Shown here: piece after piece, positions 6,924 through 12,696 of the stretch
Position numbering within the stretch: position 1 is the first letter of the stretch
Layout: every line of letters starts with the position of its first letter
Origin: Ferroglobus placidus DSM 10642
GTDB lineage: Archaea > Halobacteriota > Archaeoglobi > Archaeoglobales > Archaeoglobaceae
Assembly (NCBI RefSeq): GCF_000025505.1
Contig: NC_013849.1
Span: forward strand, 750,001-782,000
Reading direction: 5' to 3'
DNA: 32,000 bases
Notes under the pieces: generated by a model
The model's input: only the letters and a program-made list of their open reading frames with translations
Told to the model about the DNA's origin: nothing
Databases searched by the model: none
Position numbers and translations under genes: made by a program

Positions 6924-6998
6924 GCCCGGGTGGTGTAGCCAGGCCTAACATGCGGGCCTGTCGAGCCCGCGCCTCGGGTTCAAATCCCGACCCGGGCG
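6924..6998 (+). tRNA. tRNA-Asp (anticodon GUC), no encoded CCA
   Basis: Folded by hand. Acceptor GCCCGGG/CCCGGGC plus discriminator G. D stem GTGT/ACAT with one G-U pair. Anticodon stem CGGGC/GCCCG with loop CTGTCGA (anticodon GTC). T arm TCGGG-TTCAAAT-CCCGA. Total 75 nt. Confidence 0.9.
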
Positions 6999-7062
6999 TA
7001 AAGGAAAAAGTTAAACGCACGAAAGCGGAGAGCTCGGTATCAAACTTACAGCCCTTAAATAC

Positions 7063-7069
7063 TTTTTTT
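7063..7069 (+). terminator. Oligo-T tract (T7), possible archaeal terminator for the icd/tRNA-Asp transcript
   Basis: Run of 7 T located 65 nt downstream of the tRNA 3' end. Confidence 0.3.
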
Positions 7070-7435
7070 GATAAAAAGGTATACGTGAAGCAAAAGGTCG
7101 ACATGGAAAAATGGAGGAGAATAATCTTTATTGAGGTAAAGTCCATAAGGCTGATTGTGAGTAATAAGGAAAAAATAATAAAGGAGGAATTAAGCAAGAT
7201 TAAATAAGATGAAATACAAGAGGGGGGTTGGCAGTTAGGGAGTTTTGCCATTTTTATTAGTTTATAAGGTCGGGGGAATCCAAAAATTGAGATTCTACTT
7301 CTTAAAATTCGATTTAACCGATAGGCTCGGGTGCCCGAAACTCCTCATCACCAACTATCGAGCATCGAGGGAATGGTTTGAAATCACTATTGGGCCTGAG
7401 GATGGGAGAATGAGTTAAGTGTGGAAGTCTGACCG

Positions 7436-7852
7436 ATGGAGGATGAGAAGAAGAAAATTCTTGGAATAGAGCCAGAAGAGTATTTTACGGGTGAGGACTG
7501 GATAAGGGCTGGACGAAGGCGTTACATGCTTCTGAACATCATTTACTACCTTCAGCACTTTGCAGGAAAAGAGGATGGAGTTAGTATTAGCGAGATTTCA
7601 GAGTTTCTTGAAGTTCTTCAAACTGTTGACAGAGAAATCTACTCCAGCATCGTGAAACCCGGAATAGCTGTGGAATCGACTTTAAGTGAGCTTCTGAATA
7701 AAGGATTGATCATTGATAGGTCAGAAGGAAAATTTTCCATAAATGTGGAAAAGGTTAAGTCGGAAAAAGATTTGATTTACTGGGGAAGTGTGAAAAGAGT
7801 ATTTGACAAGGTTAATGAAATAATGAGTTTTGGAGGTTATAGAAATGAATAA
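7436..7852 (+). CDS. Small hypothetical protein with a winged-helix-like core, first gene of the McrBC-like module
   Basis: 138 aa. The segment '[11 protein letters not shown]...[24 protein letters not shown]' reads like helix-turn-helix plus a beta wing (my inference). Its stop (7850-7852) lies inside the start region of the next gene. Confidence 0.55.
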
Positions 7853-10800
7853 AGAAAGGTTAAAGCCGGTGTTAGAAGAGTTAAGAGAAAAATACGAGAA
7901 AGAATGGAGAAGTGTTGAAGATACTATTTTGAAACATCTTGATGAAGTTAAGGAAACCATCGAGCAGCATTTAAAAAACAATCAGGAAATTGATTTTGAA
8001 ACAGCAAAGAAAATATATGAAAAAATTGAAACAATAGACAACTTAACCAAGCCTTTTCTTCTGTGGATATCTCCTTCAGAAGGAGGATTTGCAAGGGATA
8101 AACATGAGGACACAGAGAAAATAAGAACGAAAATATTGAACAATCAAATAATTAGAGATTTTCTAAATGAAGTTAAAAGCTTAGAGAGTTTAGGGGAGCT
8201 CCAAAGAATTAAAGATAGACTTGAAGAAATTAAAGGAACCGAAGAGATCAAAGGAATAAGCATATCTAATTTAAGCACGTGGATGAGTATCTTCAATCCG
8301 AAAATTTTCATGCCAACATGGGAAAACACAGTAAATAAGCATCTGAGGAATGATCTGGGTTTTAATCGATTCTGGGGTGGTGATTCGGATATTGAAAAAT
8401 TTATTGAGTTTACCAAAACCGTTAGAGAGATTGCTGATGAGGTTGGAATAAATAGCATGTTGGAAGCTGCATTTTATCTAAGCAAGTATGAAAGAAGCAA
8501 TGTTGAAAGTTTTTCAGATTTACTTAAATTACTTAAAGAACTAAAAGATTACTATCATAAAGAATGGAAAGAAGTAGAAAAGCCATTTATGGATAAAATT
8601 GAACAAATAAGGAAATTAATTCTGGAAAAAATTGAAGGCGGTGAAAGATTCAGTGAGGAAGATGTGAATGAAATCCTCAAACTAAGAAACGAAGTTCCTG
8701 AAAATTGTAAATTCTTATTAAGATATTTTGTTAGTGCAGGAGTACCTCCGAAAGAAGTGCTAATTAGACTACTCAACAATAAGAATTTCCAAAATCTGGT
8801 TAAATCGATAAGTCAAAGAAAAGAGGATGAAATAAGGAAGTTCTATAAATTAACCAAAGAAGAAGTAATGTATGTCGGTAACTCATCGTTGAGTACTTGG
8901 CTTGCAGTTTTGAATCCAGAATATTACATGCCTACTTGGGGATGGGAACATCAAAGTGGAACCCTGCCACTTGTATTATATAAGGATGTCAAAGAGCTTA
9001 GGAGTTTTGAGAAATGGTGGACACAAGAACCAGAGAAAATATTTGAGCTGTTTTCTCTTTTGAAGAAAGTTTCAAATGAAGCTGGGATTAATAACATGTT
9101 TGAAACGGCGTTCTATTTAAATAAGTATGAGAGCAGGAATATAAAAGAGAAAAATTACTGGATAGAGATAGGAGGCCCACCCTCAAAAGAATATATAGGT
9201 AAATACCTGTGGGCTCCGAAGGCACCGCAATGGAGATTACTGGAAAATGTTCAGAAAGACGACATTATTTATCATTATGTCACTTCCAAAGGGCCTGAGG
9301 AGTTTGGGGGAAAGTTTGTCGGAAAATCTAAAGCAAAGGAGAAAGCCAAGGAAATTGATAAAGATGAACTTGTCAGAATAATGAGGGAGATTGACGAAAA
9401 TTGGGATAACTTCTTTGAAGGTTGGAGAAATTATGATACCTTCTACTTAGTCGAACTTTACGATTATAACGAATTCAAACAACCGATCTCGAAAGAAGAG
9501 GTTGGATTTAATCCCCCTCAGAAATATTTTGTCAGGGCCCCATCCGAAATTGTAAACAAAATTGAACAGCTGACGTCAACTCAAAAGAAGTCAGAAATCG
9601 ATGAAAAAACAAAAAAGAAAATCGAAACCATTCTCACCTACAAAAAACAACTCATCCTTTACGGCCCTCCTGGCACGGGCAAAACATGGCTTGCAAGAAA
9701 CTATGCAATAGAAGTTGGTCAAGAAAAATACAGGTTTAGAAGAAAAACCCTATTGGGTGTAGAATTTTTCTTTTGGGTTATAAACCCTGAGAGGTGGGAT
9801 TATACACAGCTTGAAGAAGGCAAAGACGTTGAAATGGGGAAAGGAAGATTAAAGAGTGCGTTTGAAAAGATAAACAACGGAGACCTGGTGTTTATATATG
9901 TAGGTAAACAAATAGGAAAGATATACGGAATCGGGAAATATAAATACGATGATTCAAACGAAAAGCCCTACTTATCTGTTTTGAAGCTATTTGAAGGACC
10001 CAGTTTAAACGATTTAAGAGCAATTTTGAAGGACTCGATTCCAATTAAACAAAACCTAAGAGGAACTTTGTTTCCGTTGAAGCCTGAAGAAGGTCTAAAA
10101 CTGCTTGAAGCATCAGGATTAAGTCTGAGTGATTTAAGCCTTGAGGCGGAAGAATACTCTGAAGAGGTAGAGGGTATAAGATTCGTTACTTTCCACCCCT
10201 CTTATTCCTACGAGGAGTTCGTTGAAGGATTAAGGCCAAAAGCGGATGAAGAAGGGGATATTAGGTACGAGATAGAAGATGGAATTTTCAAAACTGTTTG
10301 CAAAGACGCCTTCAATGCCCTTATGAACCATGCCGGCATCGATAAGGTGTGGGAAGATGAATTACCCGAATTAAGCTATGAAGAAAAACAGATTGTTTTA
10401 GGTTCTCTGGAAGATGCTCCAAAATTCTTCCTCGTGATAGATGAGATAAACAGGGGCGACATTTCCAGAATTTTCGGGGAGCTCATAACTCTTATAGAAG
10501 AAGACAAAAGGCTCTTTGCCGAGAACGAGCTGACAGTTACTCTGCCATACTCCAAGGAAAAATTCGGAGTCCCGCCCAACCTCTACATTATAGGCACTAT
10601 GAACACAGCAGACAGAAGCATAGCCCTGATTGACGTAGCCCTGCGCAGGAGGTTTGGTTTTATCGAACTCATGCCGGACTACGAAATTCTCGAAGATAAG
10701 CTCTTGTCAAGGGATGATGAAGCGAGAGATATTAAAGAACTCGCAATCGATGTTTTGAGAAAACTGAACGAAAGAATCAGAAAGAATTACGACAGAGACC

Positions 10801-11060
10801 ATCAAATAGGGCACAGCTACCTTTTAAAGCTTGAAAAAGCCGATACCAAAGATAAAGCAGTTGAAACTCTGCAATTCATCTGGTATCACGAGATACTCCC
10901 GCTGCTGCAGGAGTACTTCTACGACAGTCCGGAGAAGCTTAAGAGAGTCCTCAACGAAGCATTCGTTAGGGTTGAAGAGAATAGCTTCGACTTTGAGTAC
11001 CTTGAAGGTGAAAGATTTGTTGAAGAGCTGAGAAAAGTTGCCGAACAGGAGCAGCAATGA
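7845..11060 (+). CDS. Giant McrB-family AAA+ GTPase (type IV restriction specificity/motor subunit) with a multi-domain N-terminus and an internal insertion
   Basis: Walker A GPPGTGKT (9663-9686); '[16 protein letters not shown]'; Walker [12 protein letters not shown] (10425-10457); McrB signature '[11 protein letters not shown]' (MNTADRS at 10599-10619); 'LRRRF'. Start taken at ATG 7845, preceded by GGAGGT (7833-7838). The ORF track uses TTG at 7830. Confidence 0.9.
7860..9140 (+). repeat. Intragenic tandem duplication, two ~210-aa copies of an uncharacterised module in the McrB-like N-terminus
   Basis: Copy 1 (aa 11-224) against copy 2 (aa 231-437): [26 protein letters not shown]; [38 protein letters not shown]; [40 protein letters not shown]. 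Confidence 0.85.
9153..9497 (+). other. PUA/EVE-like putative modified-base reader module (aa 442-556 of the McrB-like protein)
   Basis: '[10 protein letters not shown]...[26 protein letters not shown]...[17 protein letters not shown]'. The pattern (aromatic-W start, conserved W, acidic-DxIxxY strand, trailing beta strand) resembles PUA-superfamily domains fused to type IV enzymes. Assignment is by eye only. Confidence 0.4.
9762..10124 (+). other. EVE-like domain inserted within the AAA+ core (aa 645-765)
   Basis: '[13 protein letters not shown]...[33 protein letters not shown]...[18 protein letters not shown]...[17 protein letters not shown]' matches the EVE pattern (W..NP..W, GD.V.FY, I.GIG, trailing 'pl..ee'). 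It lies between Walker A (aa 612-619) and [10 protein letters not shown] (aa 788-797), which are about 25 aa apart in E. coli McrB as I recall it. Confidence 0.6.
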
Positions 11061-12337
11061 AAACCTATTCAACCTTTGAGTATTCGGAAGTGGAGTACAG
11101 AATAACTGACGATGGAGAGGAAAGAGTAGAGAATAATGTACTCTACCTCAAAGAGAAATCTGTTGAATATCTGGAGAAACTGAACGTAGCTCAGGTTCTG
11201 AGAAACAAAATAAAATTCCAGAACTACGCTGGAGTCATTTCTTTCGAAGATATCAGGCTGGAAATTCTCCCAAAATTTCTCAGGACGGATAAGAAGCTGG
11301 TAAAACCAGAAGAAATTGATGAAAAGAGAGAGAAAATCTTGCAAAATCTCGTTAGAATGCTTGAATATTCGGGATGGGAAGGAATTAAGGAAACCGACCT
11401 CACACAAATCGGGACGGAGAAGGATTTCTTTGAAATCTACGTTTTCCTCTTTGCAAAAAACCTTGCAGAGCTTCTCAAGGTAAACAGGGATGCATCTTAC
11501 GTCCGAACTTACGACGAACTCAGATTCGTAAGGGGGAAGATAGAATTCAGGAAGTACTGGAATCCAGCAAGACTTCATATAATTCCATGCAGCTACTATG
11601 AGAGGAACATGAACACACCAATCAACCGCACCCTGAAATTCGTCTCGTATCTTCTTTTAAAGAAAGTTGAAAGCTCTGAAACGAGAAGGTTGCTTAAAAG
11701 CGTGATATCTGTATTAGACTCAGTCACTTTGTCCCCAGTAACTCTGGCAGAGGTCGAGAAAATCACCTTCAACAGGCTTAATTCACGCTTCATTCCGTTC
11801 ATAGACTTTTGCAGAGCTTTTTTGAGAGACTCAGTTTTCTCGCTTCAGGGCTCGGATGTAGAGTTCTTCTCATTCCTAATACCGATGGAGACATTGTTCG
11901 AAAGATTCGTGGCGAAAGCCGTAAAAGAGTTATATAAGGGCACAGAATGGAAACCACATATCCAAGAAACATTTGGTTATCTAGTACCCAAAGAGAAACT
12001 TTTCCAGCTACAGCCGGATATAGTTCTCGAAAATGGGGGAGAAAGGGTGATAGTAGATACAAAATACAAGATCCTGGACCCAGAGGACAGAAAGCTCGGT
12101 GTTTCTCAGCAGGACCTTTACCAGATGTACGCATACTGCAAAGAGCTTGGATCCAGTAAATGTGTACTTATATACCCCGAAAGTCTGAATGGCAAGATAG
12201 ATGGAGAATTTAAACTTGGAAGCAAGGAAAAGATCGATTTGAAGGTAAAAACAATATCTCTCGAAAACCCATTTGATAACGGCAAACTTTCGGAGAATTT
12301 TAAGGAAAGTTTGAGGAACGCTATAGGATTACTCTAA
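11057..12337 (+). CDS. McrC-like PD-(D/E)xK endonuclease subunit
   Basis: 426 aa. '[10 protein letters not shown]' followed by '[22 protein letters not shown]' (PD...D-T-K-Y-K, 12014-12070) and '[10 protein letters not shown]', the McrC C-terminal nuclease signature. The ATG overlaps the mcrB-like TGA (ATGA at 11057-11060). Confidence 0.88.
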
Positions 12338-12696
12338 TCTTACATCTGACTTAGTTAAACAAAAAACTTAAGTATAACAAATCTAATCAACTATTAATGT
12401 CCCAAAAGGCTTACATAACCCTCCTCGGCCGCTCTGGCTGGGCGCTTATTTTAAAGGTTTAACTGTCATTGTGGTTTGCAGAGGTCTGAGAGGTCTCTCT
12501 GGGGAAAAAGAGTTAAAAGGAGTCTAATCTTCTACGATAAAGCTGAATTTGCTTATAACGTCTCAAACAAATAGGAAGTGGGTTTATCCTTCGTTATTTT
12601 AGCAATTCCGTAAGAAATTTTAATAGCTAAATTATAATCGGATTTCTCGCAAACGAGCTGAAATGATAAAGTATTTCAAAAAGTCAACGAAACTGC

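Follow-up and report, generated by a model that had tools for sequence, protein, structure and literature searches.

A McrB-family AAA+ GTPase of the archaeon Ferroglobus placidus DSM 10642 carries a divergent EVE domain of the PUA superfamily within its motor, in the loop between alpha1 and beta2 of the AAA+ core, and alignment and predicted structure indicate that the fold and the catalytic motifs of the motor are intact in spite of this insert. The protein is encoded by a single uninterrupted open reading frame (ORF) of 1076 amino acids at 7830-11060 (+) of the stretch of DNA analysed here (32,000 nucleotides, positions 750,001 to 782,000 of contig NC_013849.1, assembly GCF_000025505.1; hereafter the window), next to a gene for the nuclease partner McrC, in what is otherwise an ordinary Type IV, that is modification-dependent, restriction locus. 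An EVE-like domain nested in the AAA+ core past Walker A had been proposed by an earlier model-made reading of the letters, prepared without database searches (the sequence-only reading). This proposal was borne out by alignment, structure models and profile comparison, and the motifs quoted in its support are all in place in the ORF. The layout, an EVE domain in the McrB core, is frequent in both bacteria and archaea and does not represent a new kind of system.

An EVE-like domain between alpha1 and beta2

The interruption of the motor is evident from the distance between Walker A and the next conserved McrB block, which amounts to 176 residues from start to start, compared with 30-31 in nine canonical homologues; the spacing of about 25 residues between these blocks that the sequence-only reading had given for E. 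coli McrB agrees with the canonical value. In a phmmer search against PDB sequences, residues 200-236 of Thermococcus gammatolerans McrB (TgMcrB) were aligned with residues 597-633 of the F. placidus protein and residues 243-285 with residues 784-826, and E. coli McrB was aligned across the insert in the same manner. A connection of about 6 residues in solved McrB motors is thereby extended to about 145-150 residues. Alignment to E. coli and Thermococcus McrB, a check that the sequence-only reading had itself put forward, thus revealed a motor that is continuous on either side of the insert. Likewise, the Pfam family AAA_5 matches the protein in two stretches with a break at about profile position 30. 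The insert starts about 14 residues past the GKT of Walker A, and the elements follow one another in the order beta1, Walker A, alpha1, linker strand, EVE barrel, linker strand and beta2, after which the usual fold continues.

Structure prediction with AlphaFold2 (AF2) for residues 584-1076 including the insert gave a predicted local distance difference test score (pLDDT) of 84.5, and most of the AAA+ core scored higher than 90. When this model was compared with solved structures by Foldseek, TgMcrB (6ut5_A) was retrieved with an expectation value (E) of 4.9e-28 and a template modelling score (TM) of 0.66, and E. coli McrB reached a TM of up to 0.77 (6hz4_E), both scores being normalised to the target; a phmmer search of the McrB sequence against PDB sequences matched 6ut5 with E 3e-74. 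In an alignment with 15 homologues, no variation is seen in Walker A, Walker B, the N-x-x-D signature or the RRRF motif, the signature residues being N342 and D345 of the alignment. The NxxD signature of McrB is required for GTP hydrolysis (PMC11090510, PMC7680126). In addition, the McrB_lid family (PF28529) is present in the precomputed Pfam list of the F. placidus protein (P0001). Walker A and B, the NxxD signature, an AAA+ fold superposable on solved McrB and the adjoining McrC together place the protein in the McrB family. The two linker strands (residues 633-640 and 774-781) pair in both AF2 models, with low to moderate confidence.

The insert itself contains the EVE signature in a block at residues 648-658, in NNGDLVFIY (682-690), in IYGIGKY (698-704) and in a block at residues 743-754. 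Against the Pfam EVE family (PF01878), the full protein scored 14.7 bits and the insert alone 17.4 bits (E 0.0045), and as the gathering cut-off of 23 was not reached, we refer to the domain as EVE-like or divergent EVE. A BLASTP comparison of the insert with the N-terminal EVE domain of the homologue P0013 had the right register and was not significant by itself (E 0.65), so that a profile-profile comparison was needed. For this purpose, a profile of three insert sequences was compared by hhalign with the N-terminal EVE segments, delimited by eye, of classical EVE-McrB fusions, represented by five McrB homologues with PF01878 in their precomputed Pfam lists. The two profiles were aligned over 120 columns with a probability of 97.6% and E 4.3e-12.

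Modelling of the insert alone (residues 632-782) led to the strand-helix order of a PUA-like barrel (pLDDT 73.9, predicted TM-score 0.71). The top three Foldseek matches of this model in the PDB were 2gbs, 1zce and 2ar1 (E 4.6e-5 to 2.8e-4, TM 0.53-0.60), which we take to be EVE-family proteins, and YTH and ASCH domains ranked after them. The sequence blocks characteristic of the EVE family, (F/W)W..(I/A)NP..W, GD.VF.Y, GP and RGTLF.L..EE, are retained, as are W649, W656, Y658, F678 and Y690 as candidates for the aromatic pocket. The insert is hence a divergent EVE, or EVE-like, domain of the PUA superfamily. An insert that folds by itself in an otherwise intact AAA+ fold is also what the sequence-only reading had proposed to look for in an AlphaFold model; the projection of the domain from the motor is suggested by the two independent fold matches.

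Distribution of the nested layout and use of the site

When 1.84 billion cluster representatives were searched exhaustively by HMMER, the insert profile matched 183 proteins at E up to 1e-3, about two dozen of which were classical N-terminal EVE fusions. Walker A and the beta2 block were both recognisable in 110 of 170 gathered sequences, and 85 of these 110 have at least 150 residues between the two motifs, with the domain at the same site. The view of the sequence-only reading that such nesting is unusual was consequently not upheld. The spacing ranges between 150 and 240 residues, apart from a single case above 310, and clusters at about 170-190 and about 200-220, the bacterial class having about 40 extra residues. 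In the alignment of the nested-EVE family, the linkers are the least conserved and the most length-variable stretch. Pfam EVE was passed over the full model by 5 of 10 nested members tested (P0052, P0057, P0061, P0065 and P0086, 34-42 bits against the cut-off of 23), and the nested domain of Mycobacterium sp. E342 also passed (25.5 bits).

The search for the same insertion point in other McrB homologues, likewise foreseen by the sequence-only reading, was successful in archaea (Methanospirillum) and in bacteria. A scan of genomes, one per species and amounting to a sample rather than a census, detected the nested layout in at least seven: Mycobacterium sp. E342, Candidatus Sulfopaludibacter, Methanospirillum and metagenome-assembled genomes of Mycobacterium, Spirochaetaceae, Phycisphaerales and Bacteroidales. 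The taxa concerned are Mycobacterium, Acidobacteriota, Planctomycetota, Spirochaetes, Bacteroidales and Methanospirillum. McrC is encoded directly downstream in all four genomes with the nested layout that were checked, and also after the metagenomic homologue P0003 (five other loci). The nested EVE is paired with varied N-terminal modules, and in the motors that contain it the distance from beta2 to Walker B is of the long T. gammatolerans type in some and of the short E. coli type in others.

Among the closer homologues, P0003 and P0005, both metagenomic, carry a homologous insert in the same place, and P0002, P0004 and P0006 are without it. The closest motor, that of P0027, has 87.6% core identity to F. 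placidus McrB and 68% identity from Walker A to beta2, the region of the insert; P0002 and P0004 have 59-61% core identity and no insert. These comparisons of sequence point to a nested module that was recently gained, lost or exchanged. Since the insert is variable or absent among close motors, the alpha1-beta2 site behaves as a permissive slot for a fast-evolving module.

Further observations concern relatives in which this site, or another one, is differently occupied. P0002 has an N-terminal PUA-like domain 76% identical and a motor 61% identical to those of F. placidus McrB and lacks the insert. A McrB of Geoglobus sp. UBA235, a member of the same archaeal family (L012, 4111-7173), has the canonical spacing of 30 residues and no insert, and a 445-aa ORF that is McrC-like by size lies just downstream. 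P0011 possesses at the alpha1-beta2 site a different insert of about 130 residues (residues ~480-630), which is not EVE-like by eye; its precomputed Pfam list includes EVE, seemingly in N-terminal position. This protein suggests that additional modules of various kinds can be housed in the alpha1-beta2 loop.

A second nesting site was noted in P0008 (L038, 122-2311) and P0010, where DUF8426 (PF28530) follows the GIFK helix behind beta2 and precedes Walker B. The distance from beta2 to Walker B is 225-232 residues in these two proteins versus 46-49 in the shortest homologues, and McrC is next in L038. The AAA_5 protein P0018 has a similar domain ahead of its DEMN Walker B, and in other homologues, e.g. 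P0004 and P0013, DUF8426 is N-terminal. The DUF8426-nested proteins follow the same principle as F. placidus McrB, a putative reader in the AAA+ core followed by McrC, and differ in the inserted family and in the loop, which is one element further along the fold. The alpha1-beta2 loop and this second loop before Walker B thus stand out as permissive slots for swapping McrB specificity modules.

Outside the McrB family, RuvBL1 and RuvBL2 (Pontin and Reptin) have a nucleic-acid-binding OB-fold domain II between Walker A and Walker B, which projects from the ring. Their chains were weaker Foldseek matches of the model of motor and insert (ranks 25-46). They belong to another AAA+ clade, carry another inserted fold and do another job (chromatin remodelling, assembly chaperone), and the likeness is one of analogy only, the insertion not being homologous.

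A proposed modified-base reader at the rim of the ring

AAA+ topology would put the alpha1-beta2 loop at the far end of the sheet, remote from the nucleotide pocket or P-loop and from the pore loops. Because the loop is directed away from pocket and pore, the McrB hexamer would bear six EVE domains on its outer rim. For TgMcrB, reader domains were described at 'the outside edges' of the hexamer by Niu et al. 2020 (PMC7680126), who also argue that DNA is not threaded through the pore; the central pore is plugged by McrC, and the maps from cryo-electron microscopy resolve the N-terminal readers poorly. T. gammatolerans McrB (YTH-AAA+; 6ut3-6ut8) and E. coli McrB (6hz4, 6ut6) are the closest solved motors and share the catalytic motifs and the partnership with McrC; unlike the nested domain, their readers are N-terminal, on short or flexible linkers, and their alpha1-beta2 connection is the short one described above.

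We consider it likely that F. placidus possesses a Type IV McrBC system in which an EVE-type reader of modified bases, nested in the alpha1-beta2 loop, is a specificity module at the rim of an intact motor. The EVE barrel would be an autonomous plug-in, whose N and C termini meet in the predicted two-stranded ribbon. Six such domains would decorate the outer rim in the region where the TgMcrB readers were seen, and there the nested EVE would most likely bind foreign DNA with a modified base. The bound EVE would recruit the GTP-driven McrB6-McrC complex, and the PD-(D/E)xK nuclease of McrC would carry out the cleavage.

In this activity the nested EVE would act beside the N-terminal PUA-like domain and the two helical repeats of the same protein. 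Residues 443-582 gave no match to any Pfam family, and a three-sequence profile of this region searched against PDB sequences matched 6n0s_A (181 aa, 'AAA_5') with E 2.1e-6, so that a candidate reader in the conventional N-terminal position is present as well. We take 6n0s to be Staphylothermus marinus McrB's PUA-like N-terminal domain, whose structure was reportedly described by Hosford et al. in 2020 (J Struct Biol). The match concerns residues 443-582 and not the nested EVE, and homology between these two domains of the F. placidus protein was not detected by hhalign (probability 11%). As a second, N-terminal reader-like domain and helical repeats are present, the specificity is probably combinatorial or broadened.

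Several points weigh against a rim-located reader. The match of F. placidus McrB to Pfam EVE is not only below the threshold but confined to profile positions 5-63, and a phmmer search with the insert alone found no match among PDB sequences at E up to 10. Phenylalanine occupies position 648, which is mostly tryptophan in the family, and leucine position 726, where 87% of the family have an aromatic residue; with Phe and Leu at these places, the base-binding pocket of the nested EVE may be altered. The model of the insert is only moderately confident, with pLDDT values of about 45-77 in the linker strands. The rim location and the independence of the domain from the motor are what we infer, along with the binding of a modified base and the identity of the modification read, and the searchable literature contains no binding or restriction results for any nested-EVE McrB.

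Some of these points would also fit a degenerate relic in F. placidus, a nested EVE that makes a structural or non-specific DNA contact and leaves the N-terminal PUA-like domain (residues 443-582) as the true specificity module, which appears unlikely to us. Bacterial members pass the Pfam threshold that is missed here, Trp is changed to Phe or Leu at aromatic positions conserved in the family, the 6n0s-related second domain is at hand, and the region of the insert is less similar to P0027 than the motor core (68% vs 87.6%). The faster evolution, however, is expected of a specificity module under phage pressure, the signature blocks (F/W)W..INP..W, GD.VF.Y, GP and RGTLF.L..EE are retained, and the domain still folds as EVE in the AF2 model. 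Moreover, a phmmer search with the single insert sequence still retrieves more than 100 relatives, and many family members have a nested EVE without a recognisable second reader.

A coupling of base recognition to the GTPase state through the nesting was a further suggestion of the sequence-only reading. The least conserved and length-variable linkers lend this no support, and an allosteric sensor, in which the binding of a modified base is relayed along the two-stranded linker, reaches alpha1 and the P-loop and gates GTP binding or hydrolysis in cis, is improbable. It would be in keeping with the start of the insert so close to the GKT of Walker A, with a linker that AF2 predicts as a paired two-strand element and not as a floppy tether, and with a site that is repeatedly reused across the family, in P0011 by a different domain. 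Against this, such variable linkers argue against a conserved mechanical relay and are predicted with low confidence, established AAA+ topology sets the alpha1-beta2 loop and the P-loop at opposite ends of the sheet, and the close relatives P0002 and P0004 keep the same motor while lacking the insert. It is similarly doubtful that a rigid ribbon from the Walker A helix holds the nested EVE such that capture of a base at the rim acts mechanically on the P-loop helix and gates the GTPase in cis, with target sensing built into the motor, unlike the loosely tethered N-terminal readers; in a weaker form, rigidly held readers may define the path of DNA around the McrBC ring. That the insertion is an artefact, whether through mis-assembly, through fusion of two genes or as an AAA+ element that is long but ordinary, has practically no chance of being true and was rejected on the alignment to TgMcrB, the homologues and the fold of the insert: one uninterrupted ORF lies on a complete genome, the same layout recurs across many independent assemblies and phyla, no second Walker A exists past the insert, homology to TgMcrB is continuous over the junction, the insert belongs to a fold family of its own, and no evidence in favour of an artefact was found.

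Among the EVE fusions of defence systems, EVE-McrB is the most frequent according to Bell, Wolf & Koonin 2020 (PMC7641849), an article in which nesting is not discussed. These classical fusions resemble the F. placidus system in their EVE reader, which is homologous to the nested domain by the hhalign comparison (97.6%), their McrB GTPase and their McrC partner; however, their EVE domain is N-terminal, whereas that of F. placidus is situated in the alpha1-beta2 loop and separates Walker A by about 145 residues from the remaining motor. The section 'Comprehensive census' of Bell et al. 2024 (eLife, PMC11090510), based on about 34,000 McrBC systems, states that McrB GTPase domains frequently hold insertions 'likely encoding specificity domains', and the inserts were removed ahead of tree building. 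An insertion already catalogued would, by the terms of the sequence-only reading, have spoken against its claim. GTPase-domain insertions, the same phenomenon, are indeed on record there in a general way, but the searchable text of the article spells out neither the site nor the EVE identity of the inserted domain nor its distribution, and gives no examples. The text-searchable supplements to Bell 2020 and to Bell 2024 showed no occurrence of Ferroglobus, ADC65032 or WP_052299963. The CoCoNuT systems of the NxD clade (Bell et al. 2024), marked by an NxD variant of the signature and a long coiled-coil fusion, are distinct, as F. placidus McrB has the four-residue NxxD (N-T-A-D) and no coiled-coil fusion was seen in it. 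A 2025 review (PMC12707154) still describes McrB specificity as N-terminal, and a 2026 preprint on LlaI reports an additional helix 'that immediately precedes the beta2 strand', along with species-specific AAA+ insertions that limit how binding modules integrate.

Nested readers bear on the question of how McrBC engages and moves along DNA. A reader anchored within the motor through two short linkers would be expected to occupy a better defined position, and nested-EVE McrBs, some of them from hyperthermophiles such as F. placidus, could be suited for imaging reader, DNA and ring together. As for annotation, nested-EVE McrBs are left labelled only 'AAA family ATPase' because of the split AAA+ match and the sub-threshold EVE score.

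Features of the McrBC locus

The coordinates of the features of the locus are compiled in the table.

Features of the McrBC locus in the window (position 1 is the first letter of the 32,000-nucleotide stretch)
Feature	Position	Strand	Residues and description	Basis
Small ORF, 138 aa	7436..7852	+	overlaps mcrB start	ORF list, Pfam, PADLOC
mcrB	7830..11060	+	1076-aa multidomain McrB-family AAA+ GTPase	Pfam, phmmer, database records
Helical N-terminal repeat 1	7830..8525	+	aa 1-232, without Pfam family	BLASTP repeat vs repeat
Helical N-terminal repeat 2	8526..9155	+	aa 233-442	BLASTP repeat vs repeat
PUA-like reader candidate, N-terminal	9156..9575	+	aa 443-582	profile match to 6n0s_A
AAA+ core, first piece	9597..9725	+	aa ~590-632: helix, beta1, Walker A, alpha1	
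Walker A GPPGTGKT	9663-9686	+	aa 612-619	
Linker strand 1, predicted	9726..9749	+	aa 633-640, KYRFRRKT	AF2 secondary structure, low to moderate confidence
Nested EVE-like (PUA-superfamily) beta-barrel	9750..10148	+	aa 641-773	Foldseek, hhalign
Linker strand 2, predicted	10149..10172	+	aa 774-781, EEYSEEVE	AF2 secondary structure
AAA+ core remainder and lid	10173..11057	+	aa 782-1076; beta2 IRFVT, McrB_lid	
Conserved McrB block after insert (FHxSYxYE[DE]F type)	10176-10229	+	aa 783-800	
Walker B	10425-10457	+	aa 866-876	
McrB signature MNTAD (NxxD)	10599-10613	+	aa 924-928	
ALRRRF arginine motif	10638-10655	+	rest of AAA+ core	
mcrC	11057..12337	+	426-aa nuclease partner	Pfam McrBC PF10117, E 3.9e-66

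Two starts are annotated for mcrB, TTG at 7830 (RefSeq WP_052299963.1, 1076 aa) and ATG at 7845 (GenBank ADC65032.1, 1071 aa), and both records, which are encoded on the complete 2.2-Mb genome, are annotated only as 'AAA_5 / AAA family ATPase', as the AAA_5 match is split and the EVE score is sub-threshold. The start of mcrC overlaps the stop of mcrB. McrC matches PF10117 over profile positions 1-318 of 318, and its catalytic PD...DxK is intact (PDIV...IVDTKYK, residues 320-337), which assigns it to the PD-(D/E)xK nucleases.

The N-terminal part of McrB consists of two tandem helical repeats of about 215 residues each, which are 29% identical (BLASTP, E 4e-25); a Pfam scan of residues 1-442 found no family match. 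Many related McrB homologues, and also the distinct AAA_5 protein P0018, have one to three copies of the same helical repeat.

At the locus, PADLOC reported generic matches only ('REase_II' and the Walker A region). The 138-aa ORF in front of mcrB (7436-7852) is probably co-transcribed with it. This ORF has faint matches only, to PriX (E 0.05) and DpdH (E 0.01), and a counterpart was not seen upstream of the mcrB homologue P0003. A tRNA-Asp gene (6924-6998) is located directly upstream of the McrBC locus, and a search for att-like direct repeats around this tRNA-adjacent island gave only short repeats at chance level. The G+C content climbs stepwise along mcrB, from 0.33 in the N-terminal repeats over 0.37-0.40 in the PUA-like and EVE parts to 0.43 in the C-terminal motor, and is 0.43-0.445 in the flanks, above that of the locus. 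The McrBC locus (7000-12400) looks like a mosaic, horizontally acquired island.

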